DNA of 64,000 nt from the NCBI GenBank assembly GCA_040902265.1, contig JBBDXQ010000108.1, positions 1,706-65,705 of the forward strand, given 5' to 3'. The position numbers and the translations under genes were made by a program. Each line of letters starts with the position of its first letter. Position 1 is the first letter of the stretch. Below the pieces are notes generated by a model. It ran no database searches, was not told where the DNA came from, and worked only from the letters and a program-made list of their open reading frames with translations. The DNA is from Anaerolineales bacterium (GTDB taxonomy: Bacteria; Chloroflexota; Anaerolineae; Anaerolineales; UBA11579). Shown here piece by piece: positions 26,835-63,917 of this stretch.

Positions 26835-26843
26835 TTTCAATCC

Positions 26844-30954: not shown

Positions 30955-31817
30955 TCGATAGCAAAGCCTTGGCCGCGAAAGTAGAAGCGCCTACTGTGCT
31001 TATCAAACCGCAGCGCGGCTTGGTGGGTCTCGATTTACGTGAGCTGTTTCGCTTCCGTGAACTGATCTTTTTCCTCACCTGGCGGGATATTTTGGTGCGT
31101 TACAAGCAGACTTTGCTTGGCGGTACCTGGGCGATCGTGCAACCACTATTGCAAATGCTTATATTTAATGTGTTATTTGGTGACATTGCCGGGTTATCCA
31201 GCGGCGGCATCCCGCGTCCACTGTTTACCTATTCCGCCCTGCTTCCCTGGAACCTGTTCTCTACCGCTATTGGTGAAGCCGGACGTTCTCTGGTAACCAA
31301 TCGCAGTATGATCACCAAAGTCTACTTCCCGCGCGTGGTGGTGCCCCTGTCTTCGGTGCTTAGCGGCGTGGTGGACTTTGCGGTGGCTTTCGTCGTGCTG
31401 GCTGGGATGATGCTTTATTTCGGCGTCATGCCTACATCGGGGATTTGGGGCTTGCCATTTTATTTGTTGCTTTCGTTGGTAACCGCCCTGGGTGTAGGTC
31501 TTTGGCTCGCGGCGTTGAATGTGCATTACCGCGATGTGCGTCACATCATCCCCTTTCTAACCCAGTTCTGGATGCTCGCCACCCCTATTGCTTATGAAGC
31601 CAGCGAGATCTTTGAGCGCTTGCCGCAAGGACTTGAATGGCTTTATGCGTTAAATCCCATGGTGGGTGTGGTTGAAGGCTTTCGCAATGCCCTGGTGGGT
31701 ACACCGATCTTCTCTGCCGGTATGTTGTGGATCTCACTGATCACTTCATTCGTACTGCTTCTCACCGGTCTGATTTATTTCCGCCGAATGGAACGCACCT
31801 TTGCGGATGTCGTATAG
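30951..31817 (+). CDS. wzm: ABC-2-type polysaccharide export permease
   Basis: ATG 30951 forms an ATGA overlap with fcl. '[36 protein letters not shown]' is the ABC-2 signature start. Six hydrophobic segments. Confidence 0.8.
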
Positions 31818-31818
31818 C

Positions 31819-35550: not shown

Positions 35551-36443
35551 ACCTGTTGGATTGGGAACTAAAAAGGAAGCGTGGTTTGGGCCACCTGTTC
35601 CGCAAAGCCACTTTGGCTCCTTGGCGGGCATGGCGGCGCTCCACCGCGTTCGCCCGCGCCCTTCCAAATTTCCTCATCATCGGAGCGCAGAAAGCTGGCA
35701 CCACCTCGCTTTACGGGTATTTGTCCCAGCATCACAATGTAATGTCACCCATGAAAAAAGAGATTCGTTACTTCGGCGAGAACTATTTCCAGGGTCCCAA
35801 TTGGTATCGGGCTCATTTTCCGTTCTCATTCAGGTTGGCTAATGGAAAAATGATTACCGGGGAATCTAGCCCTACGACCATTTTCCATCCGCTCGCCCAC
35901 GAGTGGGTGGCGGCTACAATACCCTCGGTTAAGCTGATCGCTTTGTTACGCGATCCAGTGGCGCGTGCTTTTTCTCATCACCAGATGAACTTGCGCTCGG
36001 GCCGCGATCAATTGCCTTTTGAGGTCGCCATCCAGAGAGAGGCCGAGCGGTTGGATGGCGCCTTGGAAGGCGTTCTAAATGGTGATGATGAAGCTGTGTT
36101 TCGCTATACCAGTTTCTCTTATTTGGCACGTGGGGACTATGAAACCCAACTGAAACGTTGGGTCCGCGTCTTTCCGAAAGAACAACTATTAATACTACAG
36201 AGTGAAGAATTATTTCAAAACCCTGCCCAGGCTTATCGTCGTGTCTTGGCCTTTCTTGGGCTTTCAATGATTGAATTACCAAGCTACGATGCGTTTAATC
36301 CTGGCCGATACGATGGGGAGATCCCACAAAAAAGCCGTAGTTTCCTGACGGAGTATTTTCGCGAGCCCAATCAACGCCTGGCCGAATTGCTGGGACAGGA
36401 TTTCAACTGGCAGCCCGCCGCCAGTCTTGTGGAGGTCTTATGA
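35547..36443 (+). CDS. PAPS-dependent sulfotransferase
   Basis: 298-aa ORF with an ATGA overlap. 5'-PSB loop 'FLIIGAQKAGTTSLYGYL', 'KEIRYF', and the 3'-PB region 'LIALLRDPVARAFSHHQM' give a carbohydrate-sulfotransferase-type layout. Confidence 0.85.
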   Translation: MNLLDWELKRKRGLGHLFRKATLAPWRAWRRSTAFARALPNFLIIGAQKAGTTSLYGYLSQHHNVMSPMKKEIRYFGENYFQGPNWYRAHFPFSFRLANGKMITGESSPTTIFHPLAHEWVAATIPSVKLIALLRDPVARAFSHHQMNLRSGRDQLPFEVAIQREAERLDGALEGVLNGDDEAVFRYTSFSYLARGDYETQLKRWVRVFPKEQLLILQSEELFQNPAQAYRRVLAFLGLSMIELPSYDAFNPGRYDGEIPQKSRSFLTEYFREPNQRLAELLGQDFNWQPAASLVEVL

Positions 36444-37447
36444 ATTGGAAAGAACAGGTTGTGCTCGTTACCGGAGGAACAGGTTCTTTCGGCAGGGAAT
36501 GCATTCGCATCTTGTTGGATGAATACAAACCCTCAAAGGTGATTGTCTTCAGCCGTGACGAGCTGAAGCAGCATGAAATGCGCGCAATGGGGTTCGACCA
36601 AGTCAATCTGCGCTACTTTATCGGTGACGTTCGTGACCTTGGCCGTTTGAAGCGCGCTATGGTTGGGGTGGATGTGGTATTACATGCCGCCGCCCTCAAA
36701 CAGGTGCCGGCATGCGAATACAACCCGATGGAAGCCATCAAGACTAATATTCTCGGCACGGCCAATGTGATCGAAGCCGCACTGGAAGCTGGTGTCAGCA
36801 AGGTGTTGGCGCTCAGCACCGACAAGGCAGTCAGCCCCGTGAACCTGTATGGCGCCACCAAACTGGCAGCGGAGAAGCTGACTGTGCAAAGCAACGCGTA
36901 TTCTGGCGATCAGCCCACGCGCTTCAGCTGCGTACGTTATGGCAACGTTATTGGCAGCCGCGGCTCGGTGGTGCCCATCTTCCTGCGCCAACGCGAAAAC
37001 GGTAAATTGAATATTACCGACAAACGTATGACCCGCTTTTGGCTTTCACTCGATCAAGGTGTCCGATTTGTGCTCAACTGCGTCGAGGTCATGCATGGCG
37101 GGGAAGTGTTTGTGCCCAAGTTGCCCAGCACCTCGATCTTGGAACTTGCCAAAGTTATTGCTCCCCTGGCCGAACTGGAAGAGATCGGCATTCGCCCTGG
37201 GGAAAAACTACACGAGGTGTTGATCTCAGAGGACGAAGCGCGCACCGCCGTCGAATTGAAGGACATGTACGTGATCCAGCCGGCGCTGGGACCTTGGTTT
37301 GTGCGCTCCTGGGATCAGAAAGGCAAATCTCTGCCCGATGGTTTTTATTATGCTAGCAACGAAAACCCACAAAAGTTAAACCCGGCGGAAATACTAAAAA
37401 TGGTAGCTCCCTATGAAGCCGAATTAAAAGCAGGCAATCTGGCGTGA
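36440..37447 (+). CDS. pseB: UDP-N-acetylglucosamine 4,6-dehydratase (inverting), PseB type
   Basis: 335-aa ORF, collinear with Campylobacter/Helicobacter PseB: 'VLVTGGTGSFG', 'VFSRDELKQHEMR', 'YFIGDVRD', 'HAAALKQVPACEYNPMEAIKTNILGT', 'LSTDKAVSPVNLYGATKLAAEKL', 'RYGNVIGSRGSVVP', 'MTRFWLSL', 'HGGEVFVPKLPS'. Confidence 0.9.
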   Translation: MNWKEQVVLVTGGTGSFGRECIRILLDEYKPSKVIVFSRDELKQHEMRAMGFDQVNLRYFIGDVRDLGRLKRAMVGVDVVLHAAALKQVPACEYNPMEAIKTNILGTANVIEAALEAGVSKVLALSTDKAVSPVNLYGATKLAAEKLTVQSNAYSGDQPTRFSCVRYGNVIGSRGSVVPIFLRQRENGKLNITDKRMTRFWLSLDQGVRFVLNCVEVMHGGEVFVPKLPSTSILELAKVIAPLAELEEIGIRPGEKLHEVLISEDEARTAVELKDMYVIQPALGPWFVRSWDQKGKSLPDGFYYASNENPQKLNPAEILKMVAPYEAELKAGNLA

Positions 37448-38382
37448 CGCGCATTCTTATCACCGGAGCTAGCGGGTTGCTCGGTGTCAATTTGGCACTC
37501 GAAGCCGCAAAGCGTTATGAAGTCATTGGGTTGGTGAATACTCAGTCTTTGCACAACCCCGGTTTCCAGACCCTACACACTGATCTACTTGACCTCGAAT
37601 TAATTCCCATGTTAATCGAAGAGACTATGCCCGATTGGGTAATCAATTGTGCCGCGCTGACTGATTTGGACACTTGCGAGCGCCAGCCGGAACTAGCCAA
37701 GCGTCTTAACACTGAGCTGCCTGGCCGCTTGGCTGCAGAAACAGCCAGGCGCAACCTGCGTTTTCTACAGGTTTCGAGCGATGCAGTATTCGATGGTGTT
37801 AAAGGCGATTACCGCGAAGAGGATGCGCCCAATCCACTCAGTACCTACGGGCGCACTAAGCGACTCGCCGAGTTGGCTGTGAAGGCAGCCCACCCGCAGG
37901 TGCTGATAGTGCGCCCCAACATATTTGGCTGGAGCGTGAGCGGCACCCACAGCTTGGCCGAGTTCTTCTTCAACAACCTTTCGACCGGAAAACCGATACA
38001 AGGGTTTACCGATCGGCAATTCTGCCCATTGTGGGTCAACCATCTCGCTGCGATTATGCTTGAATTAATGGAGAAAAATACGCGCGGGTTATTCCACACA
38101 GTCAGTTCCGACGCACTGACCAAGTATGAGTTCGGCGTAGCTATTGCTAATCGGTTTGGCCTGGACGCCGCCATGATCAAACCTACCAGTTCGGAATCTG
38201 GTGATGCGCTGGCGCCTCGTGCCCTCAATTTGAACTTGAAGACCACAAACTTGACCAAAGAACTCGGCCGCCGGCCGCCTAGTGTTGCAGCTGGCATCGA
38301 AGGACTTTTCCAGCAATACGTTACTGGTCACCGCAAACAACTTCGGGCAATGGCGGGTTCACCCGAGGCGATGAAAGGCTAA
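37444..38382 (+). CDS. RmlD-like NAD(P)H-dependent 4-keto-sugar reductase (dTDP-4-dehydrorhamnose reductase family)
   Basis: 312-aa ORF. The GTG start overlaps the pseB stop. 'ILITGASGLLG', 'VINCAALTDLDTCE', 'FLQVSSDAVFDG..GDYREEDAPNPLSTYGRTKRLAE' (S...YxxxK). Confidence 0.75.
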   Translation: MTRILITGASGLLGVNLALEAAKRYEVIGLVNTQSLHNPGFQTLHTDLLDLELIPMLIEETMPDWVINCAALTDLDTCERQPELAKRLNTELPGRLAAETARRNLRFLQVSSDAVFDGVKGDYREEDAPNPLSTYGRTKRLAELAVKAAHPQVLIVRPNIFGWSVSGTHSLAEFFFNNLSTGKPIQGFTDRQFCPLWVNHLAAIMLELMEKNTRGLFHTVSSDALTKYEFGVAIANRFGLDAAMIKPTSSESGDALAPRALNLNLKTTNLTKELGRRPPSVAAGIEGLFQQYVTGHRKQLRAMAGSPEAMKG

Positions 38383-38384
38383 GC

Positions 38385-39449
38385 ATGCAGATCGATATCC
38401 AGGGTAGGCAAGTCGGTATAAAGCATCCGACCTACTTCATTGCCGATATTGCCGCCAATCATGACGGCGACCTTAAACGCGCCGTGGAACTGATCCGCCT
38501 GGCCAAGGTGGCTGGGGCTGATGCGGCCAAGTTTCAAAACTTCCGTGCTCCCAAGATCGTTTCGGATTACGGTTTCAAAGCGCTGGGCGACCAACTCTCA
38601 CACCAGGCCAAGTGGGAAAAAAGTGTTTACGAGGTGTATGAAGACGCTTCGATACCCTTCGAATGGACGCCCACTCTAAAAGAGGCCTGCGATGAGGTTG
38701 GTATCCATTATTTCTCTTCCCCCTACGATTATGAAGCCATCGAAATGCTCGATCATTACGTGGCAGCGTATAAGGCGGGGTCCAGCCTGATATCCTGGCC
38801 GCAAGCCATCGTGCGTATGGCGCGGTTTGGCAAACCTGTCCTGATCGCCACCGGCGACTCAGACATGCTAGACGTTGAACGCGTGATGGCCATGGTGCTG
38901 CCAGTAAATAAGGCAATAGTTCTGATGCAATGCAACACGAACTACACAGCCAGCGAAGGCAATTATGACCACTTGCATCTCAATGTGCTCACGACCTACG
39001 CAACCCGGTGGCCGGGTGTGATCCTGGGCCTTTCCGACCATACCCAAAGCCCAGCACCGGTGGTTGGCGCTGTGGCCTTGGGTGCTCGTGTGATCGAGCG
39101 CCACTTTACCGACAGCAACAGTCGTGAAGGCCCCGACCATAAATTCGCGCTCAACCCGGATAATTGGGCGCACATGGTGGAGGAAGTTCGCATCTTGGAG
39201 CGCTCGCTTGGCTCCTCAGAAAAATTTGTGGCCGAGAATGAAAAAGAGACCTATATCGTCCAACGCCATTGCTTGCGGGCATCCCGGATGGTGAAGGCTG
39301 GGGAAATATTCACCGAAGATATGCTTGAAGTTTTACGGCCGGCTACCCCCGGCGCAATAATGGCCTGGGAGCTATCCCGGGTCCTGGGCAAAAAAGCGAT
39401 GACCGATCTCCCATTTGGTAAGGAACTTCGTTGGGAAGATTTAGACTAA
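38385..39449 (+). CDS. NeuB/PseI/LegI-family nonulosonic-acid synthase with a C-terminal SAF domain
   Basis: 354-aa ORF. 'PTYFIADIAANHDGDLKRAVELIRLAKVAGADAAKFQNF', 'GLSDHT', 'VIERHFT'. C-terminal 'RASRMVKAGEIFTEDMLEVLRP' is SAF/antifreeze-like. Confidence 0.85.
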   Translation: MQIDIQGRQVGIKHPTYFIADIAANHDGDLKRAVELIRLAKVAGADAAKFQNFRAPKIVSDYGFKALGDQLSHQAKWEKSVYEVYEDASIPFEWTPTLKEACDEVGIHYFSSPYDYEAIEMLDHYVAAYKAGSSLISWPQAIVRMARFGKPVLIATGDSDMLDVERVMAMVLPVNKAIVLMQCNTNYTASEGNYDHLHLNVLTTYATRWPGVILGLSDHTQSPAPVVGAVALGARVIERHFTDSNSREGPDHKFALNPDNWAHMVEEVRILERSLGSSEKFVAENEKETYIVQRHCLRASRMVKAGEIFTEDMLEVLRPATPGAIMAWELSRVLGKKAMTDLPFGKELRWEDLD

Positions 39450-39462
39450 CCCTGCCAGCCAA

Positions 39463-40530
39463 ATGAAAATTCTGTATTTCAGTCGCAGCTATACTCCGCA
39501 CGATTTTCGTTTCCTCTCGGCAATCGTTGAAGGCGGCCATCGCGCTTTTTTCCTGCGATCTCAGCATAGTAACTCTTCGCGTATTCCCCCATTACCCAAA
39601 GGCACCGAGGAGGTGGCGTGGTCTGGATTTCTCGAGCCGGTGATCGCGCAAGTAAAACCCGACCTGGTGCACGCTGGGCCGGTGCCGTCCTGCGGCTACT
39701 TGGCTGCCAGAAGCGGGTTCCACCCGCTCGTGCTCATGTCCTGGGGCTCAGACCTTTTGTGGGAGGCGCGCCGGAACCCATTTGTTCGTCTGCGGGCTAA
39801 GTATGCCCTGCCGCGCGCAGACGTTGTCATTGGGGATTGTGACGCAATGCGTAGAGTCGCGATGGATTATGGTGCACACTCCAGTCGTATAGCCGTTTTC
39901 CCATGGGGAGTTGACCTCAAGAGCTTCAATCCCAAGGGTGGCGACGGGGGTTGGCGCGCCCGCCTTGGCTGGCAGCAGAACGTTGTTCTATTACATTTGA
40001 GAACATGGGAACCGCTCTACGATCCCCTCACCGTTGCCAGGGCTTTTGCGCGCGCCGCCCGCCAAGAGCCGCGCCTGCGCCTACTAATGCCCGGCGCTGG
40101 CAGCCTGGCTGGCAAAATTACCAAAGTTTTTGAACAACACCAGGTTTTGGACCGCGTGCATTTTCCAGGCCAGCTAAATCACGACGAGCTTCCGCAGATC
40201 TTCCGGGCGGCTGATCTGTACCTTAGCGCTTCCCTAAGCGACGGTTCCTCTGTCTCTCTGATGGAAGCCTTAGCAAGCGGCCTGCCAGCCTTGGTTTCTG
40301 ATATTCTCGGAAACCGCGAATGGGTGCAGCCTGGTAAAGAAGGCTGGCTCTTCCTCGCAAAGGATGATGTCGTGCTGGCGGACCATATCCTGCGCTCAGT
40401 AGCCCAACCCGATCAGCTTAAGCTTATGGGCGGGTTGGCGCGAAAAACTGCAGAAACTCGCGCCGATTGGGCTCAAAACAAGCAGGCGTTATATAGTGCC
40501 TACCATCTAGCTCTTGAGACAGCAGGCTAG
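39463..40530 (+). CDS. glycosyltransferase, GT4-like
   Basis: 355-aa ORF. 'LSASLSDGSSVSLMEALASGLPALVSDILGNREWVQPGKEGWL'. Confidence 0.75.
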   Translation: MKILYFSRSYTPHDFRFLSAIVEGGHRAFFLRSQHSNSSRIPPLPKGTEEVAWSGFLEPVIAQVKPDLVHAGPVPSCGYLAARSGFHPLVLMSWGSDLLWEARRNPFVRLRAKYALPRADVVIGDCDAMRRVAMDYGAHSSRIAVFPWGVDLKSFNPKGGDGGWRARLGWQQNVVLLHLRTWEPLYDPLTVARAFARAARQEPRLRLLMPGAGSLAGKITKVFEQHQVLDRVHFPGQLNHDELPQIFRAADLYLSASLSDGSSVSLMEALASGLPALVSDILGNREWVQPGKEGWLFLAKDDVVLADHILRSVAQPDQLKLMGGLARKTAETRADWAQNKQALYSAYHLALETAG

Positions 40531-40531
40531 C

Positions 40532-41290
40532 ATGGTGTCCCGAGTGGTTGCCATAATCCAGGCCCGCATGGCATCCAGCCGCCTACCGGGCAAAGTACTG
40601 GCCGATCTGGGCGGCCAGCCCATGCTGGCTTGGGTGGTGCGCCGCGCTAGCCGTGCAAAAGGAATTGACCAGGTGGTAGTGGCCACCTCCATTGCTGCTG
40701 AAGACGATGCAGTGGTTGCCTTTTGCAAAGAACAGGACTATGCCTGTTCTCGCGGCAGCCTTTACGATGTGCTTGACCGCTTTCGGCAAGCTGCCCAGGA
40801 ATTCGATGCTGAAGTCATCGTGCGCCTAACAGGTGACTGCCCGCTGATTGATCCCGGCATGCTCGCTGATAATTTAAACACCTTCCTTAGCGCACAGCCC
40901 CCCTTGGATTTTGCTGCTAATCGTTTGCCGAGTGATCGGACCATCCCCATCGGGTTGGATGCAGAATTCTGCACCATGGCCGCTCTGGAAACTGCCTGGC
41001 GTGAAGCGCAGAAGGAGCATCAGCGTGAGCATGTGATGCCGTTCTTTTACGAGAACGCCGACCGTTTCCGTACCCTCCACATTAAGCACCACCCGAATGT
41101 CGGCAATTATCGCTGGACTGTTGATACGCCCGAAGACCTTGAACTTATGCGCAAAGTTGTCACTTATTTTTCGGACGATACATTTTCGTGGCAACAAGTC
41201 TTGGCCCTGTTTTATCAGCATCCTGACCTTGCCAGGATAAATGCTTCGGTAATGCATAAGAGCCAATACGACGTAGATGAACGCCAATGA
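40532..41290 (+). CDS. cytidylyltransferase of the SpsF/PseF (CTP_transf_3) type: CMP-ulosonic acid synthetase candidate
   Basis: ATG 40532 lies 1 nt after the upstream stop. 'VVAIIQARMASSRLPGKVLADLGGQPMLAWVVRR', 'VVVATS', 'VIVRLTGDCPLIDP'. Confidence 0.75.
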   Translation: MVSRVVAIIQARMASSRLPGKVLADLGGQPMLAWVVRRASRAKGIDQVVVATSIAAEDDAVVAFCKEQDYACSRGSLYDVLDRFRQAAQEFDAEVIVRLTGDCPLIDPGMLADNLNTFLSAQPPLDFAANRLPSDRTIPIGLDAEFCTMAALETAWREAQKEHQREHVMPFFYENADRFRTLHIKHHPNVGNYRWTVDTPEDLELMRKVVTYFSDDTFSWQQVLALFYQHPDLARINASVMHKSQYDVDERQ

Positions 41291-42195: not shown

Positions 42196-43170
42196 ATGCG
42201 TGTGGGTCAAAACCCGATTAAGTCAGTAGGGAGTGTTGAGCCACCAGCCCTGGTTACTGTGGTGGTGTTCAGCTCCATCCCCTTCCTTAGCGGCTATTTC
42301 TCCGAGAGTTTGGATGTTCTCAAACTTTGTCTATCCAGTCTACGTCGGAATACACGCGGAGAATTCGATTTGATGCTCTTTGATAATGGTAGTTGTGCCG
42401 CGGTTCGCAAGTACCTAATCGCTGAGCAAGACAAGAATCGCATTCAATTTCTAATCCTATCCGCGCGTAATATCGGCAAACCGGCGGCCTGGAACGCAGC
42501 CCTTACCGCGGCTCCCGGCGAATATGTCGCATATGCCGATAGCGACGTCTATTTCAATCCAGGTTGGTTGAAGGCTAGCCTGGATACGTTGAAAGCCTTC
42601 CCCAAAGCCGGCATGGTGACCGCCATGCCTATGCTCATCCCCGAAACATATTCCACGGCGACAGTTAAATGGGCAAAAAAGAACCCTGAGATCAAGCTGG
42701 AACGTGGCCATTTGCTGCCTTGGGAGGATTTCTGGCGGCATGCCCGTAGCCTGGGTGACACCGAGCAGCAAGCCCGAGCCTTTTACCAAGCAAACCCGAT
42801 AGTGAGAATCACATACAAAAAGAAACGTTTCTTTGCCGGAGCAGCCCACTTCCAGTTCACTGCCAGGAAAACAGTCCTTCAGCGTGTGTTACCTATTCCT
42901 GCTGAGAAACCCATGGGTAGAGTGCGTTTACTGGATGAGGCGATCAACGCCGCTGGATACTTACGGCTTTGTACCGAGGACTGGCATGTCCAACACATGG
43001 GGAATTTGTTGCCTCAAGCTTCCGATTTGATCAGTCCTGTACAAGTTCCTGTCCAACGCGCCAAAAACCGCGGCAAAATTGCGAAAATCTGGCGCTGGGA
43101 GCCGATTCGCAAGCTATTGCAATGGATCTACGGCTGGAGTTTCGATCGCCTGCACCGTGGCGGATCGTGA
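42196..43170 (+). CDS. GT2-like glycosyltransferase
   Basis: 324-aa ORF abutting the upstream stop. 'VTVVVFSSIPFLSGYFSESLDVLKLCLSSLRRNT..LMLFDNGS', 'YADSDVYF'. Confidence 0.6.
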   Translation: MRVGQNPIKSVGSVEPPALVTVVVFSSIPFLSGYFSESLDVLKLCLSSLRRNTRGEFDLMLFDNGSCAAVRKYLIAEQDKNRIQFLILSARNIGKPAAWNAALTAAPGEYVAYADSDVYFNPGWLKASLDTLKAFPKAGMVTAMPMLIPETYSTATVKWAKKNPEIKLERGHLLPWEDFWRHARSLGDTEQQARAFYQANPIVRITYKKKRFFAGAAHFQFTARKTVLQRVLPIPAEKPMGRVRLLDEAINAAGYLRLCTEDWHVQHMGNLLPQASDLISPVQVPVQRAKNRGKIAKIWRWEPIRKLLQWIYGWSFDRLHRGGS

Positions 43171-44606
43171 TGGCTAAGCATCGCATTTTCATTAGCGCAG
43201 ATCATGGTCTGGCGATAGTATATTTTCTGCAAAGCGACGTACTTACTACTTTACTTGTAGATGATGTAGAAGTTGTGCTGCTCACCGACGACGCCCTTGC
43301 CGATCACATCCGCGAGCGATTTGGCCGGCCAGGCCTGACTATTGAGGGCCTTCGTTTATCGAAGGCCCAGGATTATTTCAAACAGGTTTCCCCTTCGCGC
43401 CAGTGGTGGCTGGATTTCTTGCGTCGTGCCGGTGCCTCCAACCAAATCAACCTCGAGGCAGTGGAAAGCTATGTCTCCCAGGTGAAAGCGGAAGCCAACC
43501 CCCGCCGCAAGCTGTTCTTCCCCTTGATGCAACTAGTGGTGGCCGTGTTGCGCCGCTCGCGCCAGGCGCGGTCGGCTTTGCTGGGTGCCCAGATGCGCTT
43601 CACTCCTAACCTCTACGCAGATCTCTTCGAAAAGTATCAGCCCGGCCTGGTAGTAGCCAGCACACCTGGCTGGCGTTTTGATCGATACCTTCTGCGTGAA
43701 GCCAATGCTCGCAATATCCCCACCGCTTCGGTAATTGTCGGTTGGGATAACAGCAGCAGTTATAGCTTGCCGGGCGCTCCCGTGGATTGGGTCACTTGCT
43801 GGTCGCAGATCCAAAAAGAAGAGCTGGAACATGGTTCCGACTGGTCTGCAGAGCGTGTCAATATCGGCGGTATCCCCATTTACGATGGCTATTTCAAAAA
43901 TGAATGGGTATTGTCCCGCGACCAATATTTCAAACAACATGGCCTGGACCCTAACCGGAAATTGATCTCATACGCCAGTAGCTTTATCACCTTTTCTCCC
44001 AATATTCAAAATATAGAAGCGCTTGCCGAATTAGTTTCCAGTAACAAACTAGCCGCGCCTAGCCAATTGCTGGTGCGTTTGCACCCCAACCATTTTATGG
44101 ATGTGCATCGCTTTGCTGCCGAGCGCGAAAAGATCCGCACCTTGGCCGAAAAGCTGCCACATGTTAACGTCGTCGAACCTGTGCCCCTAGGAGGCTCTTT
44201 GGGCTATTATTCGGGCGAGGACATGCCCGAGAAATCTTCGATGATGGCTTATTCTGATGTGTTTGTCACTGTCTATTCCACCATGGTGGTGGAAGCCGCT
44301 GTTCACCAGCGGCCGGTGGTGAGCGCTTGCATTGATTCAATTGTGGGGTGGCCTGGGAAATTCACCATACCGCTTTCACGCATCGGCGATTGGCCTACTC
44401 ATTCTCGTTTCCGCAATTCGGGAGCCGGCCGTGTCGTCTATACCAAGGCGGAGTTAGCAGACACCATAAATTTTTATCTGATCAATCCGCAAGCCGGGAA
44501 GGAAGAGCGCCGCGCTTTCATTGAGCGCGAATGTACTTTCACGGAGGGCAGCGCTGGCCGGCGCACCGGTGAATATCTGCTCTCCCGAATAGGGAAACGC
44601 GCATGA
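43170..44606 (+). CDS. GT-B-like polysaccharide biosynthesis protein of unknown specificity (distantly similar layout to 33104/54937)
   Basis: ATG 43170 shares 1 nt with the upstream TGA; the track ORF's 67 upstream codons overlap the GT2 gene. 'LISYASSF', 'LLVRLHPNHF', 'MAYSDVFVTVYSTMVVEAAVHQRPVVSA'. Confidence 0.45.
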   Translation: MAKHRIFISADHGLAIVYFLQSDVLTTLLVDDVEVVLLTDDALADHIRERFGRPGLTIEGLRLSKAQDYFKQVSPSRQWWLDFLRRAGASNQINLEAVESYVSQVKAEANPRRKLFFPLMQLVVAVLRRSRQARSALLGAQMRFTPNLYADLFEKYQPGLVVASTPGWRFDRYLLREANARNIPTASVIVGWDNSSSYSLPGAPVDWVTCWSQIQKEELEHGSDWSAERVNIGGIPIYDGYFKNEWVLSRDQYFKQHGLDPNRKLISYASSFITFSPNIQNIEALAELVSSNKLAAPSQLLVRLHPNHFMDVHRFAAEREKIRTLAEKLPHVNVVEPVPLGGSLGYYSGEDMPEKSSMMAYSDVFVTVYSTMVVEAAVHQRPVVSACIDSIVGWPGKFTIPLSRIGDWPTHSRFRNSGAGRVVYTKAELADTINFYLINPQAGKEERRAFIERECTFTEGSAGRRTGEYLLSRIGKRA

Positions 44607-50195: not shown

Positions 50196-51953
<1,758 letters not shown>

Positions 51954-51979: not shown

Positions 51980-52801
51980 ATGGCAAACCTGGCGAAGTCC
52001 TTTGACTTGAGTGGCCGCGTCGCCGTGGTGACCGGTGGCGCCGGTCTGCTCGGACGCCAGTTTTGCACCACTTTAGTTGAGGCAGGCGCTGCTGTGCTTG
52101 TGGCCGATGTGAATAGCGCGTCGGCTGAGCAAGTCGCCAAAGACCTTATCGCCGCCGGGCACACCGCCGCAGCCCACCCAACAGACGTTGGCGATCTGGC
52201 TTCAGTGCAGGCCATGGCTGTGGCTGCCATCCAGCTGTTTGGCCGCCTCGACATCCTGGTGAACAGCGCCGCACTCGATCCCAAATTCGACCAGGCCAGC
52301 CAAGCTAAACACAACACCGCTTTCGAAGAGTATCCGCTCCTGGCTTGGGAAGCTGCCATGAGGGTCAACCTTACCGGTGCATTCCTTTGCTCTCAGGTTG
52401 CAATCCGCCCCATGCTTGAGCAAGGCAGCGGGGTCATTGTTAACATCTGCTCCACGTACGGTCTTGGGGGTCCGGACCAACGCATTTATCAGAAACCCGG
52501 AATCGCCGCACAATACAAACCGGTCGACTATACCGTGACCAAGGCCGGTATCCTCGGCCTGACAAAATACCTGGCTACCTATTATGGCGACAAGAACATT
52601 CGCGTCAATGCGCTCACCCCTGGCGGCGTCTTCAACGCCCACGATGAGGAATTTACCAAAGCCTATTCTGCTCGCACGGTGTTGGGCCGCATGGCCGAGC
52701 CTTCTGAGATGAACGGCGCTCTGCTATTCCTGGCTTCCGATGCGTCTAGCTACATGACAGGAGCTAACCTGGTAGTTGACGGCGGATGGACGGCGTGGTG
52801 A
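51980..52801 (+). CDS. classical short-chain dehydrogenase/reductase (FabG/gluconate-5-dehydrogenase-like)
   Basis: 273-aa ORF. 'VAVVTGGAGLLGRQF', 'NSAA', 'YTVTKAGILGLTKYLA' (YxxxK), 'IRVNALTPGGV'. Confidence 0.85.
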   Translation: MANLAKSFDLSGRVAVVTGGAGLLGRQFCTTLVEAGAAVLVADVNSASAEQVAKDLIAAGHTAAAHPTDVGDLASVQAMAVAAIQLFGRLDILVNSAALDPKFDQASQAKHNTAFEEYPLLAWEAAMRVNLTGAFLCSQVAIRPMLEQGSGVIVNICSTYGLGGPDQRIYQKPGIAAQYKPVDYTVTKAGILGLTKYLATYYGDKNIRVNALTPGGVFNAHDEEFTKAYSARTVLGRMAEPSEMNGALLFLASDASSYMTGANLVVDGGWTAW

Positions 52802-54036
52802 GCCCCAAACAACCCGAGGTGCTTGCCATCGTGCCGGCTCGGGGCGGCTCGAAAAGCATCCCGCGCAAGAACGCGCAGCCCTTTCTTGGCCATCCACTGG
52901 TAGCTTTCAGCATTGCCGCCGGGCTCCAGTCAAAAAGCGTCGGCAGGGTCATTGTCTCGACAGATGACGAAGCGTTGGCAGAACTTGCCCGCCATTACGG
53001 CGCGGAAACGCCATTCTTGCGGCCTACCGAGTATGCCCAGGACGACTCGCCGGATCTGCCGGCTTTCCAGCATGCACTGCGCTGGCTGGCCAAGAATGAA
53101 AAGTACCGGCCTGATATCGTGGTTCAATTGCGCCCTACCTCGCCATTGCGTCCCAGAGACCTGGTGGACCGCTCCGTAGAGACATTGTTAGCGCATAATG
53201 AAGCGGATTCCGTGCGCGGCGTTGCTCCCGCCGGACAGAATCCCTACAAGATGTGGACTATTTCAAAAGAAGGTGGCATGCAGCCCCTGTTGAAAACAAG
53301 GGGACTGGCTGAACCCTACAATGCTCCGCGCCAGGCTTTGCCGCTTACCTATTGGCAGACCGGTCATATCGATGCGATACGCACACACACCATATTGAAG
53401 AAGGGCAGCATGAGCGGAGAAGTGATTTGGCCGGTACTGATCGATCCGCGTTACGCGGTGGATATCGATACACTAAACGATTGGCGTCGCGCTGAATGGC
53501 TGGCTGCCTCCGGCGAACTCGACATGGTCCGCCCGGGTTCCGCCCCGCGTCCACTGCCCAGCCAGGTCAAATTACTCGTCATGGATTTTGACGGGGTGCT
53601 TACGGATAACCGCGTCTGGGTTAATGAAGTAGGCAACGAGCAAGTGGCTGCCAACCGCAGTGATGGCCTGGGGGTCAAAATGCTGCTCAAAGCCGGAGTG
53701 ACTGTGCTGGTCATCTCGATGGAGGAGAATCCCGTCGTGGCTCGCCGCTGTGAGAAATTGGGCATTTCTTATAAAAAAGGGATTGCCAATAAAGGCCCGC
53801 TCTTGCAAGAGATCCTGGCCGAGCGTTCTGTTTCCGCGAATGAAGCTGTTTTCCTTGGCAACGATATTAACGACCTGCCATGTTTCCCGCTGGTGGCCTG
53901 CGGCGTTGCGGTTGCGGATGCGCATCCCGAAGTGATCCGAAAAGCGGATCTTGTGCTGGGCAAGCGCGGCGGTCAGGGCGCCGTGCGCGAACTGTGCGAC
54001 TTGATCCTGGCGAATAACTCCAAGGAGATTAAATGA
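52786..54036 (+). CDS. fusion protein: acylneuraminate-type cytidylyltransferase (N-terminal) plus KdsC/YrbI-type HAD sugar-phosphate phosphatase (C-terminal)
   Basis: 416-aa ORF. N-terminal 'LAIVPARGGSKSIPRKN', 'VIVSTDD', 'VVQLRPTSPLR'. C-terminal 'LLVMDFDGVLTDNRVWV', 'DGLGVKML', 'VFLGNDINDLP', 'GGQGAVRELCDLIL'. Confidence 0.8.
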   Translation: MDGVVSPKQPEVLAIVPARGGSKSIPRKNAQPFLGHPLVAFSIAAGLQSKSVGRVIVSTDDEALAELARHYGAETPFLRPTEYAQDDSPDLPAFQHALRWLAKNEKYRPDIVVQLRPTSPLRPRDLVDRSVETLLAHNEADSVRGVAPAGQNPYKMWTISKEGGMQPLLKTRGLAEPYNAPRQALPLTYWQTGHIDAIRTHTILKKGSMSGEVIWPVLIDPRYAVDIDTLNDWRRAEWLAASGELDMVRPGSAPRPLPSQVKLLVMDFDGVLTDNRVWVNEVGNEQVAANRSDGLGVKMLLKAGVTVLVISMEENPVVARRCEKLGISYKKGIANKGPLLQEILAERSVSANEAVFLGNDINDLPCFPLVACGVAVADAHPEVIRKADLVLGKRGGQGAVRELCDLILANNSKEIK

Positions 54037-54905
54037 CGCGTGAGCTACGTATTGGAAAGCAGATGGTCGGGGATGGGCATCCCACCTACATTGTGGGCGA
54101 GATCGGCATCAATCACAATGGCGATATTGAAATAGCCAAGCAGTTGATCGACCTGGCCAAATGGGCAGGTGCAAATGCGGTCAAATTTCAAAAACGCACT
54201 CCCGAACTGGCCGTCCCCGCCGACCAGAAAGATAAAATGCGCGAGACACCCTGGGGATACATCAGCTATTTGGAGTATCGTCACAAAGTGGAGTTTGGCG
54301 AAACGCAATACCGCCAGATCGATGCCCACTGCAAGCAGAAGGGATTGGATTGGTTTGTCTCCGTTTGGGATGAGGGGTCTGTGGACTTCATGGAAGCCTT
54401 TGACACCCCATGCTACAAAGTACCTTCCGCATCGCTGACGGATAGCAGTTTGCTTAAACACCTAAGGAGGACGGGCAAACCAATCGTAGTATCCACCGGC
54501 ATGTCCACCATGGAACAGATCAGAGCCGCTGTGGATCTGGTCGGATTGGATAACCTGATGCTGACTCATACCACCAGCACCTACCCCTGTGAACCGGAGG
54601 AGCTGAATTTAAGAATGATCACCACCTTGCGCCAGGCCTTCCCAGTACCAGTTGGCTATTCTGGGCACGAAGTCGGTCTGGTCATCTCGGCTGTGGCAGT
54701 GGCTATGGGCGCTTGCCTGGTGGAACGTCATATCACTCTGGACCGAGCCATGTGGGGCAGCGACCAGGCAGCTTCAGTGGAGCCAGGCGGTTTACAGCGC
54801 CTGGTGAAGTACATCCGCGTCACGGAGCAAGCCTTGGGGGATGGGGAAAAACGTGTCTACGATAGCGAAAAGCCTTCGCTACAAAAATTACGGCGAGTCC
54901 AATAA
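54033..54905 (+). CDS. NeuB-family ulosonic-acid synthase lacking the SAF domain
   Basis: 290-aa ORF with an ATGA overlap. 'PTYIVGEIGINHNGDIEIAKQLIDLAKWAGANAVKFQKR', 'YKVPSASLTD', 'GYSGHEVG', 'LVERHITLDR'. It ends about 60 aa short of the SAF-containing paralogue at 38385. Confidence 0.8.
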   Translation: MTRELRIGKQMVGDGHPTYIVGEIGINHNGDIEIAKQLIDLAKWAGANAVKFQKRTPELAVPADQKDKMRETPWGYISYLEYRHKVEFGETQYRQIDAHCKQKGLDWFVSVWDEGSVDFMEAFDTPCYKVPSASLTDSSLLKHLRRTGKPIVVSTGMSTMEQIRAAVDLVGLDNLMLTHTTSTYPCEPEELNLRMITTLRQAFPVPVGYSGHEVGLVISAVAVAMGACLVERHITLDRAMWGSDQAASVEPGGLQRLVKYIRVTEQALGDGEKRVYDSEKPSLQKLRRVQ

Positions 54906-54936: not shown

Positions 54937-56526
54937 TTGTTCGAGCGCATAACTTCCAAGATCCTAGGGCTGGTAAGCAATCGGCGCATTGCGGAGTTGG
55001 CCCGCGCCGTAGCCCAACGAGCCGCCCCGACTCCCGTCGCGCCAGCGGTCATCTTCTTCAACGCTTCTGCACGGCTCGGCCACCTCAGCCAGAATGCCGC
55101 CTTTTCACTTCTGGCTGCCTGGGGCTTGCGTCTGGCGGGCGTGCGCGTAATCCACTTCGTTTGCAACCGCGGCATGAGCCGCTGCGTGTTGGGCACCAAT
55201 CCTGACGACCCAACCCAGCCGCCTCCCTGCGCGGTTTGCGTGGCGCAATCCCAGCGATTGTATGCCCATGCGGATTCCCGTTGGTTCGAGTTTAGAAAAG
55301 AAGCCCAATTAGCCGAAGAATTGAAGGACCTGTCCCTTGCAGACCTCAAAAAATTCGCTCACAATGGATGGCCGTTGGGGGAGCTAGTGCTGCCCGGGCT
55401 TCGCTGGACTTTACGGCGCCATCACCTAGTAAATGACGAAGCCACGCGGTACCTCTATAAGCAATACATACTCTCCGCCTTCAATGTGGGTAGGGAATTC
55501 GAGAAACTGCTCGATGAGGAAGAGCCTCCACTCGCGGTAGTCCTTTTCAATGGCCTTATGTATCCCGAAGCTATGGCTGGCTGGCTGGCGCAACAGCGCA
55601 GCTTGCGCGTCATCACACATGAAGTAGCGCTGCTGCCGTTGTCTGCTTTTTTCACTGAAGGGCAGGCTACTGCATATCCAATGGAGATCCCTGCCGATTT
55701 CCACCTATCTCCAGAACAAAACGATCAGCTAGATCACTACCTTGAGGCTCGCCTTCAAGGCCAATTCACGATGGCTGGCATTCAGTTCTGGCCGGAGATG
55801 CAAGCACCGGACGCCAACTTTCTTACTAAAGCTGCCCAATTCAAAAAGATCGTGCCGGTGTTCACCAATGTGATCTTCGACACCAGCCAGGTGCACGCCA
55901 ATACGCTCTTTCCCCATATGTTCGCCTGGTTGGATGAAGTGCGCGAACTAATTAAGACGCATCCCGACACCCTTTTCGTAATCCGCGCCCATCCTGATGA
56001 AATGCGGCCTGGCACCCGCAAGCAAAGCCGCGAGAGTGTTGGCGGTTGGGTGCAACACAATGGTTTGGAAAAGCAGGCCAACGTGACCTTTGTGGGCTCG
56101 GATGTTTATCTAAGCTCTTACGCACTGATCCAACGTGCTCACTTTGTGATGGTTTACAACTCTTCGATCGGCTTGGAAGCCTCGATCATGAATAAGCCGG
56201 TGTTGTGCGCCGGCGCAGCGCGCTACACTTCTTATCCAACTGTGTTTTACCCCAACTCCACCGCCGCGTATCTAAAAACAGCTCAAGAGTTCTTGCGAGC
56301 GGAAAAAATGGAGCAGCCCCCCGAGTTTGTTGCAGAGGCGCGCCGCGTCCTGTATTTTCAGCTCTTTCGAACCGCCTTGCCTTTCAATGGTTATCTGCAG
56401 GCGCATACTCGTATGGGCTATGTCCATCTCAATTCATTCTCTTTCGACGATCTTCTTCCACAAAATTCGTCTGCCATGCGTGCCATATATGCCGGTGTTG
56501 TAAACGGCGACTCTTTTCTGGTATAA
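54937..56526 (+). CDS. GT-B-like protein, capsule-synthesis (KpsC/KpsS, GT107-like) layout; paralogue of 33104-34693
   Basis: 529-aa ORF with an apparent TTG start and no in-frame ATG for 78 codons. See the collinear blocks listed for 33104. A Cys cluster 'FVCNRGMSRCVLG...PPCAVCVAQ' near the N-terminus is absent from the paralogue. Confidence 0.5.
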   Translation: MFERITSKILGLVSNRRIAELARAVAQRAAPTPVAPAVIFFNASARLGHLSQNAAFSLLAAWGLRLAGVRVIHFVCNRGMSRCVLGTNPDDPTQPPPCAVCVAQSQRLYAHADSRWFEFRKEAQLAEELKDLSLADLKKFAHNGWPLGELVLPGLRWTLRRHHLVNDEATRYLYKQYILSAFNVGREFEKLLDEEEPPLAVVLFNGLMYPEAMAGWLAQQRSLRVITHEVALLPLSAFFTEGQATAYPMEIPADFHLSPEQNDQLDHYLEARLQGQFTMAGIQFWPEMQAPDANFLTKAAQFKKIVPVFTNVIFDTSQVHANTLFPHMFAWLDEVRELIKTHPDTLFVIRAHPDEMRPGTRKQSRESVGGWVQHNGLEKQANVTFVGSDVYLSSYALIQRAHFVMVYNSSIGLEASIMNKPVLCAGAARYTSYPTVFYPNSTAAYLKTAQEFLRAEKMEQPPEFVAEARRVLYFQLFRTALPFNGYLQAHTRMGYVHLNSFSFDDLLPQNSSAMRAIYAGVVNGDSFLV

Positions 56527-56533: not shown

Positions 56534-56791
56534 ATGGTCTCAAAAACAGAGGAGAGCGGTCTGTTGGAGGAATTGCGCAGCCTGATGGCTGAAATTTTCC
56601 ATGTGGACGCAGACCAGATCGGTGTTGAAGCTCAATTGGGTGAATTGCCGCAATGGGATTCCTTGACGCATATGGACTTAATGGTTGCGCTTGAATCGGC
56701 TTTTGGTATAGAGATCACTGCTGAAACTATTAGCCAGCTCACCAGCCTTCCGTCAATCTGGGCTTACATTCAAAGTCAGCAGCATGCCTGA
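56534..56791 (+). CDS. acyl/aminoacyl carrier protein
   Basis: 85-aa ORF. 'LGELPQWDSLTHMDLMVALESAFGIEI' is a DSL phosphopantetheine-attachment context in a four-helix ACP-sized protein. Confidence 0.75.
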   Translation: MVSKTEESGLLEELRSLMAEIFHVDADQIGVEAQLGELPQWDSLTHMDLMVALESAFGIEITAETISQLTSLPSIWAYIQSQQHA

Positions 56792-58440: not shown

Positions 58441-58441
58441 G

Positions 58442-59221: not shown

Positions 59222-59222
59222 G

Positions 59223-62262: not shown

Positions 62263-63237
62263 ATGCCCGCCAAGCAGGCCAATAAACCTCTAGTCTCCAT
62301 CATTATCCGCGCCTTCAATGAGCAAAAACATCTCGGCAAGCTGCTGGAAGTAATTAAGCAACAAACTTTTCGCCGCTACGAGATCGTCCTGGTTGACTCA
62401 GGGTCCACCGACCGTACTCTGGCAATTGCTGCCAGCTATCCGGTCAAGATCCTGCATATCAAGCCCGGGGATTTCACCTTTGGCCGCTCACTGAACCTCG
62501 GCTTGCGTGCTGCCCGCGGCCGCCTGGTCGTCGTGGCCAGTGCCCATGTGCAACCCTTGAGCCGGGATTGGCTCAAGCAGCTTGTTGCCCCTTTCGAAGA
62601 CCCCAAAGTAGCCGTGGCCTATGGTAAACAGCGGGGCGGGGCTGTCAGCCGCTTCTCAGAAACTCAACACTTCCTACGCTGGTTTCCCCAGCGCTCCAAC
62701 TTGGACCAACCCAGCGCCTACTGCAACAACGCCAACCTGGCATTGCGTCGCTCCCTGTGGAAGAAGCAGCCCTTCAACGAGACCCTAACCGGACTTGAGG
62801 ATCTGGCCTGGGCTTCGGTCTGGCGCGAGCGGGGTTACAAGGTAGCTTACGTGGCTGAAGCTGGGGTGACTCATATCCATGAGGAAAGCTCCGCCCAGAT
62901 CATCAACCGGCACCGCCGGGAGGCGATCGCACTTAAACGCATCCTGCCATCCAGCCGCTTTACCTTGTGGCATTTTGTCAGCCTGTTCCTGCATTCCACT
63001 TATTCCGATTTTGGCGCGGCCCTCCGCCAGCGGGCGTTTTTCCGCCAGGTTCTCGGGATCATCTCTTTTCGTTTCCTTCAATACCTGGGTACCTACCGTG
63101 GTTACCGCGACGCAGTGGCTCCCAGTGCCAAACTGAAGCAGGTCTTCTACTATCCACCAGGATCCCTTGAAGACCGTTCGCAGCAAACCAACACCAAGTC
63201 CATTAAGGAACAGAGCCGCAAGTCGGCAAAAGCATGA
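62263..63237 (+). CDS. glycosyltransferase, GT2 family
   Basis: 324-aa ORF. 'VSIIIRAFNEQKHLGKLLEVIKQQTFRRYEIVLVDSGSTDRT', 'GLEDLAWA'. Confidence 0.85.
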   Translation: MPAKQANKPLVSIIIRAFNEQKHLGKLLEVIKQQTFRRYEIVLVDSGSTDRTLAIAASYPVKILHIKPGDFTFGRSLNLGLRAARGRLVVVASAHVQPLSRDWLKQLVAPFEDPKVAVAYGKQRGGAVSRFSETQHFLRWFPQRSNLDQPSAYCNNANLALRRSLWKKQPFNETLTGLEDLAWASVWRERGYKVAYVAEAGVTHIHEESSAQIINRHRREAIALKRILPSSRFTLWHFVSLFLHSTYSDFGAALRQRAFFRQVLGIISFRFLQYLGTYRGYRDAVAPSAKLKQVFYYPPGSLEDRSQQTNTKSIKEQSRKSAKA

Positions 63238-63917
63238 TCGCCAACCCTCCTCGCATTGTCGCCCTGGTACCTATGCGCGATCGTTCTGAGCGCGTGGTCG
63301 GCAAAAACTATCGTCCACTGGCAGGCTGGCCGCTGTTTCACCACATCCTGCGAGCCTTGCAAGCCTGCCCAGAAATCGCTGATATCGCGGTGGATACGGA
63401 CAGCCCGACCATCAAGCAGGGATTGGCTGACCATTTCCCCCATGTGTTGGTGCTAGACCGGCCTGAGTCTCTGCGCGGTGGCGAAGTTCCCATGAATGCA
63501 GTCTTGTTGCACGACACGGAACTGGTACCTGCCGACTTCTATTTGCAAACCCACAGCACAAACCCGCTGCTTCGCCCCCAAACCATCAGCGCCGCAATCC
63601 TGGCATTCGTTGCCAATACCGCCGCCAAGGATTCGCTATTCGGTGTCACCGAGATGCATTCCCGCCTCTATGATCAAGAGGGTCGCGCCATCAACCACAA
63701 TCCGCGCGAACTGCTGCGCACCCAGGATCTGCCTCCGGTGTATGAGGAGAATTCCTGCCTCTATATTTTCACCCGGGACAATTTGCAAAAAAATGGCCAT
63801 CGCATTGGACAATCTCCACTCTTGTTCCCTGTGCCGCGCGACGAGGCTTGGGATATCGACGAGGAACTAGATTTTCTCCTGGTGGATTTTCTCATGCGCC
63901 AGCGTCCCGCAGTCTAA
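63234..63917 (+). CDS. acylneuraminate-cytidylyltransferase-family protein (third CMP-sugar synthetase candidate)
   Basis: 227-aa ORF with an ATGA overlap. 'IVALVPMRDRSERVVGKNYRPLAGWPLFHHIL', 'IAVDTDS', 'YLQTHSTNPLLRP'. Confidence 0.75.
   Translation: MIANPPRIVALVPMRDRSERVVGKNYRPLAGWPLFHHILRALQACPEIADIAVDTDSPTIKQGLADHFPHVLVLDRPESLRGGEVPMNAVLLHDTELVPADFYLQTHSTNPLLRPQTISAAILAFVANTAAKDSLFGVTEMHSRLYDQEGRAINHNPRELLRTQDLPPVYEENSCLYIFTRDNLQKNGHRIGQSPLLFPVPRDEAWDIDEELDFLLVDFLMRQRPAV

Follow-up and report, generated by a model that had tools for sequence, protein, structure and literature searches.

The 64-kb stretch of DNA analysed here, which we call the window, belongs to contig JBBDXQ010000108.1 of an Anaerolineales bacterium (Chloroflexota), and it is a single long glycan-biosynthesis locus with nearly all of its genes on the plus strand. 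Two of its open reading frames (ORFs, designated by their first position) encode the 529-residue proteins named A (ORF 54937) and B (ORF 33104) in this work (Table 1), and a protein identical to A is found in NCBI as a 'hypothetical protein' of an Anaerolineales metagenome-assembled genome. Essentially every large ORF of the window was scanned against Pfam, with a limit of E<=1 for A, B and some other ORFs, and of E<=0.001 for most of the remaining ones. These scans gave about a dozen glycosyltransferases (GT) of the GT2 and GT4 types, methyltransferases, several large membrane proteins with PMT_2 matches in some of them, two NeuB-family synthases (38385, which carries a SAF domain, and 54033, which does not) and three cytidylyltransferases of the CTP_transf_3 type (40514, 52786 and 63234). 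No Pfam match to a sialyltransferase or Maf family (GT29, GT38, GT42, GT52, GT80; PF01973) was obtained with A, B or the other scanned ORFs. A preliminary description of the window had already counted the two synthases and three cytidylyltransferases, had noted that no recognisable sialyl- or pseudaminyltransferase accompanies them, and had proposed that A, B and two further ORFs (43170 and the truncated 1-678) form a family of KpsC/KpsS-like GT-B paralogues that might fill this role. The proposal found support for the two 529-residue proteins, on the strength of the Capsule_synth profile (PF05159), the KpsC motifs and the synteny, and failed for the family of four.

Table 1. Position of the features discussed in the text (window coordinates)
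Feature	Position	Strand	Basis or remark
Paralogue A, Capsule_synth-like GT-B protein, candidate CMP-ulosonic-acid transferase	54937..56526	+	529 aa; PF05159, AlphaFold2 model, KpsC
Four-Cys cluster of A, C76-x6-C83-x14-C98-x2-C101, N-terminal domain	55162..55239	+	alignments
E229 of A, candidate general base, end of N-domain strand ('THE'; family consensus 'TYE')	55621..55623	+	
N311-x-x-x-D315 of A, counterpart of KpsC QXXXD (D160)	55867..55881	+	phmmer
R350-A-H352-P353 of A, HP (CMP-binding) motif	55984..55995	+	aligned with KpsC 'kvHPD'
Paralogue B, Capsule_synth-like GT-B protein without Cys cluster	33104..34693	+	529 aa; PF05159, AlphaFold2 model; start abuts Wzt stop codon
ABC exporter: permease Wzm (ABC-2) and ATPase Wzt, the latter with a carbohydrate-binding Wzt_C domain	30918..33102	+	Pfam; directly upstream of B
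Module 1: short-chain dehydrogenase/reductase (51980-52801), NeuA fused to KdsC/YrbI-type HAD phosphatase (52786-54036), short NeuB without SAF (54033-54905)	51980..54905	+	Pfam, NCBIfam, PDB
Module 2: PseB-like dehydratase, RmlD-like reductase, NeuB with SAF, GT4-like protein, KdsB-like cytidylyltransferase	36440..41290	+	Pfam, NCBIfam
TagF-like GT-B protein, not of the A/B family	43170..44606	+	PF04464, 28.1 bits (cut-off 22.1)
Truncated ORF (its last 225 aa), family unassigned	1..678	+	no Pfam/NCBIfam match
Third CTP_transf_3 cytidylyltransferase	63234..63917	+	Pfam; no partner transferase identified

Relationship, family and catalytic signature of A and B

The two proteins are of the same length and collinear, as had been noticed before. 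A and B were matched by BLASTP with E 3e-13 (22% identity over 268 aa), and when their orthologue families were compared with hhalign, 452 columns, nearly the full length, were aligned with a probability of 100 and E 8.6e-49. Because this profile match spans both domains, A and B are true, ancient paralogues. The four motif pairs from which the collinearity had first been read were aligned with each other (in the order B/A: NGLILE/NGLMYPE, ANVIGDS/TNVIFDTS, LRVHPGE/IRAHPDE and VYTTTVGLEMAMSGLPVIVAG/VYNSSIGLEASIMNKPVLCAG). Three alignments underlie the conservation data given below: one of 71 A-family orthologues, one (A2) of 42 diverse A relatives and one (A3) of 55 B orthologues. The residue tallies of the A family come from 78 full-length representatives of 50% clusters, which go down to ~22% identity to A.

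A search with the PF05159 profile, which the preliminary description had suggested, placed both proteins above the gathering score of 20 of Capsule_synth, A with 31.9 bits (E 1.2e-7, residues 301-431) and B with 27.3 bits (E 3.2e-6, residues 295-438); most A and B orthologues carry the PF05159 label in precomputed annotation. [quoted passage not shown] KpsC chains were the only significant sequence matches in PDB (phmmer E 0.007-0.5 over 100-137 residues), and a profile search against KpsC gave E 0.009. The A-family profile was aligned with residues 146-267 of KpsC-N (122 aa) with an hhalign probability of 94 and E 1.2e-7, and the B profile aligned the same motifs with the same 122-aa fragment, although weakly (probability 24). 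Partial matches, in the C-terminal domain, were also obtained with the NCBIfam model NF046086 (A, 37.8 bits, E 1e-9; B, 31.9 bits, E 8e-8; cut-off 200). We consider that A and B are most likely divergent members of the KpsC/KpsS-type (Capsule_synth) branch, and not a new kind of system.

In KpsC, the Asp of an invariant QXXXD motif (Asp160) is the proven nucleophile that forms a covalent adduct with Kdo (PMC10148158), and the HP motif binds cytidine monophosphate (CMP) (PMC10148158, PMC12887879). In the phmmer alignment, VVDQTFNDMS of KpsC (6mgc) was paired with FTNVIFDTS of A, and KVHPD of KpsC with RAHPDE of A, so that N311/D315 and H352/P353 are the counterparts in A of Q156/D160 and of the HP motif. 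The equivalent segments of B, ANVIGDS (N315, D319) and RVHPGE (H356, P357), were aligned with the same KpsC motifs. The Asp and the His are separated by 37 residues in A and B versus 34 in KpsC. N311 and D315 were found in all 78 representatives of the A family, and the HP motif, R350, E229 and E414 in 77 of them each; D315 and E229 were also invariant in the 71-orthologue and the 42-member alignments. In the B family N315, D319, H356, P357, E226 and E413 were invariant across the 55 orthologues, and E226 (in 'SYEFGE') is the residue with which E229 of A is aligned. The Glu of a YE motif has been proposed as the base in KpsS1 (GT118) and KrkA (GT140) (PMC12887879). Judged from the alignments, the candidate base of A and B would be such a (Y/H)E-type Glu, in contrast to KpsC, where the Glu66 position is concerned.

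The AlphaFold2 models of A (predicted local distance difference test, pLDDT, 90.7; predicted template-modelling score, pTM, 0.90) and B (pLDDT 92.5, pTM 0.91) were both assigned by Foldseek to the GT-B fold. In these models the NxxxD motif follows the first strand (E304-309 in A, E309-314 in B), and the HP motif the second strand, of the C-terminal Rossmann domain. KpsC gave the best superposition, with template-modelling scores (TM-scores) of 0.46-0.53, or 0.48-0.53 as normalised to the target, versus 0.38-0.42 for WbbB and 0.29-0.36 for uridine diphosphate N-acetylglucosamine (UDP-GlcNAc) 2-epimerases. A and B share with KpsC a fold of the general GT-B type, an Asp placed four residues past a polar residue, and an HP dipeptide after the second strand, and with KpsC and KpsS an ABC-transporter-dependent glycan pathway. 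They differ from KpsC in the NxxxD motif (QxxxD in KpsC), in being a single module with a much larger N-terminal half, in the four-Cys cluster of A, in having NeuB-type synthases instead of Kdo genes as neighbours, and in the Chloroflexota host.

The N-terminal Cys cluster of A, to which the preliminary description had drawn attention, is real (C76, C83, C98 and C101). Among the 71 orthologues C83, C98 and C101 were invariant and C76 was conserved above 90%; all four were invariant in the 42 diverse members and present in 75 of the 78 representatives. In the model of A the cluster sits between a strand and the helix that starts at the CxxC. No Cys was present in the segment of B that was aligned with it in the hhalign comparison of A and B. 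The cluster is probably a structural zinc site. We know of no report of such a four-Cys cluster in the KpsS1, KpsS2 or Gtr59 proteins of Acinetobacter baumannii considered below.

Ulosonic-acid modules and the proposed function

As had been noted from the sequence, A directly follows the NeuA-HAD/NeuB pair of module 1. In a search for homologues of A, more than 5,750 matches were found, the top 120 at 56-76% identity, and 563 matches were confirmed in GTDB species-representative genomes. The best 80 of these 563 all belong to Anaerolineae, and their loci were annotated; the locus search was made with the A1 alignment, which limited the loci returned to Anaerolineae. Synteny was scored by BLASTP against the window proteins in the 66 loci that have at least 3.5 kb of upstream sequence. 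Within 4.5 kb upstream of A a NeuB was found in 65 of 66 loci, and NeuA followed by NeuB in 62; the full order of short-chain dehydrogenase/reductase (SDR), NeuA and NeuB was conserved in 55. Two NeuA/NeuB architectures occur upstream of A (L007-L086), one that combines a short NeuB (~290-300 aa) with a NeuA-HAD fusion (~420-445 aa), as in the window, and one that combines a ~630-700-aa fusion of NeuB, SAF and AP_endonuc_2 (a TIM barrel) with a short NeuA; they may yield the same sugar, by a phosphorylated route in one case and a non-phosphorylated one in the other. The link between A and NeuB survives the swap between them.

Orthologues of B, at 53-79% identity, were located about 18 genes away from those of A and share their contigs. 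In the related loci L087-L089, B is always placed between Wzt and the five genes of module 2, and its adjacency to Wzm/Wzt is kept in these loci and in L090. In addition, a NeuB gene was found just upstream of three (24-41% identity) out of four remote relatives of A, which are associated with differing nonulosonic-acid pathways. One of them (P0257, 40% identity) follows NeuA-NeuB, with a second Capsule_synth gene on its other side and Wzm/Wzt nearby. Another (P0357, 24% identity) follows a module of the pseudaminic/legionaminic acid (Pse/Leg) type that consists of an aminotransferase, a dehydratase, a HisH/HisF-like pair, NeuB, a GNAT protein and a cytidylyltransferase. A 744-aa member of the A family follows a NeuB+SAF+AP_endonuc_2 fusion. 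One relative carries GT2 and FkbM methyltransferase domains as fusion partners, an arrangement known from multidomain glycan synthases.

Taken together, these data make it likely that A and B are divergent KpsC/KpsS-type GT-B enzymes that move a CMP-activated ulosonic acid, produced by the adjoining NeuB/cytidylyltransferase module, onto a glycan. What the data show is the homology, the conserved motifs, the fold and the synteny, whereas the CMP-sugar donor and the retention of configuration are inferred. Each enzyme would use a CMP-activated 2-keto-3-deoxy-ulosonic acid made next door and would follow a double-displacement (retaining) route, as in KpsC and WbbB: within the C-terminal Rossmann domain the HP motif would hold CMP, attack on C2 by the NxxxD Asp (D315 of A and D319 of B) would give a covalent sugar-enzyme adduct, and a Glu contributed by the N-terminal domain (E229 of A and E226 of B) would activate the acceptor hydroxyl. 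The polymer would be made in the cytoplasm, sulfated, and then exported by the adjacent Wzm/Wzt ABC transporter.

The gene content of the modules suggests what the donors might be. The conserved SDR-NeuA-NeuB core upstream of A contains neither an aminotransferase nor a NeuC-type gene, and it includes either a domain of the KdsC/Kdn-9-P-phosphatase type or a sugar-isomerase-like TIM barrel, which fits a deamino sugar like 2-keto-3-deoxynonulosonic acid (Kdn). Module 1 thus probably makes a Kdn-like deamino nonulosonic acid, in the type-1 module of the window via a phosphorylated intermediate. For module 2, the probable product is a 9-deoxy 5-acylamino nonulosonic acid, which fits its 4,6-dehydratase, reductase and NeuB. 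In the polymer each sugar may serve as a linker, as part of the repeat unit or as a chain cap. WbbB, whose N-terminal domain (GT99) adds the beta-Kdo terminator to the O-antigen of Raoultella terrigena and Klebsiella O12, is likewise a retaining ulosonic-acid transferase; it has a nucleophilic Asp as well as an HP motif and belongs to a Wzm/Wzt pathway, although it is much less similar to A and B (profile E 0.7, and the low TM-scores given above). In its pathway the terminal sugar is read by the carbohydrate-binding domain of Wzt. By analogy, the position of B next to a Wzt with such a domain recalls the beta-Kdo chain cap, which we put forward as a hypothesis, and the conservation of both paralogues throughout the lineage recalls the linker made by KpsS and KpsC.

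Several observations weigh against this assignment. A and B resemble KpsC only weakly (12-17% identity; phmmer E 0.007), and their PF05159 match is confined to ~130 residues in the C-terminal domain. In place of the QXXXD Gln, to which the carboxylate of Kdo or the donor binds, A and B have an invariant Asn, so that the amide is retained on a shorter side chain (N311 and N315). The Foldseek E-values were alike for KpsC, UDP-GlcNAc 2-epimerases, MshA, VldE and macrolide glycosyltransferases, and only the TM-scores favour KpsC, so that the subfamily is not decided by the fold search on its own. Locus L068, from Anaerolineae, has no NeuB upstream of A, and the remote member P0390 (22% identity) has none within 8 kb. 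Furthermore, it has been argued that Kdo-type retaining enzymes need a donor with an axial substituent at C5 (PMC12887879), which Kdn and sialic acids do not have; the donor or the mechanism proposed here could therefore be mistaken. Finally, neither module has a recognised NeuC, LegG or PseG step, and none of these enzymes was found in the Pfam scans of the window.

This last point, together with the high rank of epimerases in the fold search, makes it the most serious alternative that A and B are precursor enzymes, i.e., divergent GT-B UDP-sugar hydrolases or hydrolysing 2-epimerases (analogues of NeuC, LegG or PseG) that free a hexose for NeuB, and for module 2 the missing step keeps it alive; even so, we regard it as improbable. 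There is one paralogue per NeuB module, as such a role would have it, and UDP-GlcNAc 2-epimerases, NeuC (5xvs) included, were among the top Foldseek matches with E-values like those of KpsC, but their TM-scores were below those of KpsC. A weak match of A to Epimerase_2 (PF02350; E 0.21) reached 10.9 bits, below the cut-off of 30.6, and covered only a generic nucleotide-binding part (residues 329-423), and B had no match at E<=1. The invariant residues correspond to the KpsC nucleophile and the CMP-specific HP motif, not to epimerase residues. The fused KdsC-type phosphatase of module 1 points to a sugar-phosphate route, for which hydrolysis of a UDP-sugar is unneeded, and in module 2 the hydrolase step could be provided by the GT4-like protein encoded at 39463-40530, between NeuB+SAF and the KdsB-like cytidylyltransferase. 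This protein, whose position is conserved in L087-L089, could be an analogue of PseG, and thus the UDP-sugar hydrolase that is missing, instead of a glycosyltransferase. The fusion of a relative to GT2 and FkbM domains also suits an enzyme of polymer building.

We give little credence to a second alternative, in which A and B would be glycosyltransferases of an ordinary GT-B kind, or phosphotransferases of the TagF type, that merely share the operon and use a donor (an NDP-sugar, CDP-glycerol or CDP-ribitol) unrelated to the NeuB products. In Anaerolineae synteny extends over all 64 kb of the locus, and the adjacency to NeuB could therefore be inherited gene order, but this adjacency recurs in the remote relatives, in otherwise unrelated neighbourhoods and with different nonulosonic-acid chemistries. 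PF05159 and PF04464 (Glyphos_transf) share the GT-B fold, ORF 43170 keeps the HP motif, the three GT-B proteins match a common NCBIfam domain model weakly, and the window holds a third cytidylyltransferase. Nevertheless, neither A nor B gave a match to PF04464 at E<=1, and the TagF-type reading was dropped for both on this ground; TagF was absent from the top 50 Foldseek matches of the two models. The invariant Asp, in turn, corresponds to a nucleophile used only by retaining transferases of ulosonic acids.

It is very unlikely that A, B or both are true KpsS/KpsC equivalents that add eight-carbon Kdo to a lipid-linked oligo-Kdo primer for ABC export, as in Gram-negative group 2 capsules: membership in PF05159, the contact of B with Wzm/Wzt, the KdsB-like cytidylyltransferase 40514, the KdsC-like HAD domain of the 52786 NeuA and a lineage-wide conservation like that of KpsS/KpsC across capsule serotypes would agree with it, but the Pfam scans found no KdsA-type Kdo-8-P synthase in the window, where the sole phosphoenolpyruvate-condensing enzymes are of the NeuB family, the identity to KpsC is as low as stated, A and B are single 529-aa modules in contrast to the dual-module KpsC, and a remote relative lies behind a Pse/Leg-type module.

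The transfer of nonulosonic acids by KpsC/KpsS-type enzymes, which we prefer as the function of A and B, is in principle already published. PF05159 proteins beside nonulosonic-acid modules in Acinetobacter were predicted to transfer these sugars (PMC4487303), and KpsS1 is cited in PMC12887879 as a demonstrated retaining Pse transferase and the founder of GT118. KpsS1, KpsS2 and Gtr59 of A. baumannii are members of PF05159 that adjoin a nonulosonic-acid module (PMC4487303), like A and B, to which they are linked here by their reported family only; KpsS1 transfers a nine-carbon ulosonic acid (alpha-Pse5Ac7Ac), and its YE-motif Glu is the proposed base (PMC12887879). In contrast to A and B, these enzymes belong to Proteobacteria and act on the repeat units of Wzx/Wzy-dependent capsules. 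The Tannerella forsythia enzymes Tanf_01245/TFUB4_00887/BFO_1060 (NF046086), genetically proven transferases of Pse or Leg derivatives, also carry an HP motif, within a C-terminal domain that is GT-B/TagB-like (PMC5420450), but A and B are not members of this family, and only ~90 residues can be aligned. What is new here is a deeply divergent branch with two paralogous lineages, a 529-aa architecture, the NxxxD motif, the four-Cys cluster in one lineage, conservation throughout Anaerolineae inside a sulfated-glycan locus and, possibly, a Kdn-type donor.

A bolder version of the same proposal is, in our opinion, doubtful: A and B would be the founders of new CAZy-level families (one or two) of CMP-nonulosonic-acid transferases that retain configuration, A with an obligatory four-Cys (zinc) module; A would move a sugar of the Kdn/sialic type (equatorial C5) with retention, and ulosonic-acid residues would be part of a sulfated wall polymer. 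If true, a beta-linked Kdn-type product would be formed, contrary to the recent prediction that such donors are not easily accommodated by retaining enzymes of the Kdo type, and a Kdn-like donor of A would test this published prediction on the ulosonic acids open to such enzymes. Both enzymes would then install conserved residues, as primer and/or as a chain cap read by the Wzt carbohydrate-binding domain, in a lineage-wide, sulfated, teichulosonic-acid-like wall polymer of Anaerolineae. To our knowledge, only a handful of bacterial nonulosonic-acid transferases have been characterised (KpsS1, the T. forsythia enzymes and the Maf/FlmG types), the sugars themselves being far better known, and the envelope chemistry of Anaerolineae is largely unstudied. 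For this group the present analysis puts forward two candidates, whose catalytic residues are predicted and which are conserved in the Anaerolineae genomes that were recovered. Since A orthologues are carried by the cultured species Thermanaerothrix daxensis, T. solaris and Anaerolinea thermolimosa, experiments are possible.

The two excluded ORFs

The preliminary description had also assigned to the A/B family a looser relative, ORF 43170, and the truncated ORF 1-678. ORF 43170 was matched to the A/B pair by BLASTP with E 0.009-0.057 over 53-88 aa and to the A family by hhalign with a probability of 78 and E 1.8e-5, a likeness at the level of the GT-B superfamily only. It has no Asp at the NxxxD position. 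Since it passes the threshold of PF04464, it belongs to Glyphos_transf; the TagF-type affiliation, which had been named beforehand as speaking against a transferase of ulosonic acids, is therefore true of ORF 43170 and not of A or B. ORF 1-678 shares with A and B ~30 residues of a generic GT-B C-terminal helix (a stretch of 25-31 residues; 31 columns, hhalign probability 25), and no match was obtained for it in Pfam, NCBIfam or homologue searches. The BLASTP and hhalign comparisons of these ORFs rule out the family of four and leave two members; a tempting over-grouping is thereby corrected, and a separate annotation is due for the TagF-like ORF.

Putative polymer modification and other genes of the window

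A bifunctional ATP sulfurylase/adenylylsulfate kinase, i.e., a synthase of 3'-phosphoadenosine 5'-phosphosulfate (PAPS), is encoded at 50196-51953, and four sulfotransferases are encoded at 35547-36443, at 44603-45625 and within 60542-62253. This set implies a sulfated glycopolymer. Some related loci (e.g., L019-L024, L066, L071 and L075) lack the PAPS synthase and the sulfotransferases. A functional analogy for what the locus may produce is offered by the teichulosonic acids of actinomycetes (Streptomyces), anionic, phosphate-free wall polymers of bacteria without lipopolysaccharide, which contain Kdn, a deamino nonulosonic acid derived from NeuB (PMC11481543); the Anaerolineae locus differs by its additional PAPS synthesis, its several sulfotransferases and its aminoacyl-carrier-protein module. 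In this module (region 56534-57971), a phosphopantetheine carrier protein of 85 aa (PP-binding, E 7e-9) lies immediately 3' of A; next comes a 395-aa homologue of the amino acid-[acyl-carrier-protein] ligase Bll0957 (PDB 3mey, E 1e-41), and then, at 57952-60539, a GNAT protein, an acetyltransferase of the Antibiotic_NAT family and a DUF4910/M28 protein. Together these genes look like a sugar-aminoacylating module. The whole set follows A in 40 of 68 related loci and is absent elsewhere, so that the downstream modules are dispensable.

The cytidylyltransferase 63234 lies at the edge of the window, and in relatives (L001, L003 and L090) it is followed by a 2-hydroxyacid dehydrogenase (2-Hacid_dh) and an SDR. 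It may activate a different acid or a polyol, possibly for the TagF-like ORF 43170. A conserved 302-aa protein is encoded at 41287-42195, between the KdsB-like cytidylyltransferase and a GT2, a position that is also occupied in L087-L089. No Pfam or PDB match was found for it beyond a weak one to NTP_transf_3 (E 0.018), and its 'NTDMVL' stretch is suggestive of a GT-A-like enzyme; it may alternatively be a small sialyltransferase. In the loci of two remote relatives, a gene of the MptE-like family (PF01973), which includes the Maf-type nonulosonic-acid transferases of flagellin, was found near an A-like gene (L090, 12048-12860; L092, 7734-8585); the window has none.

Six large ORFs of 521-883 aa are located at 14591-19298, 24209-28409 and, on the minus strand, 46615-49852. 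Among them only 16647 and 26844 had PMT_2 (GT-C-like) matches; the other four gave no Pfam match, but an orthologue of 48218 had a weak one to PMT_2. ORFs 46615 and 48218 are the sole large minus-strand genes that are not overlapped by a bigger plus-strand ORF. The AT skew was strongly negative (-0.17 to -0.23) in the regions of the plus-strand large ORFs and positive (+0.11 to +0.13) at 46-50 kb. Finally, a radical SAM protein of 503 aa is encoded at 19327-20838, among GT2 and methyltransferase genes.

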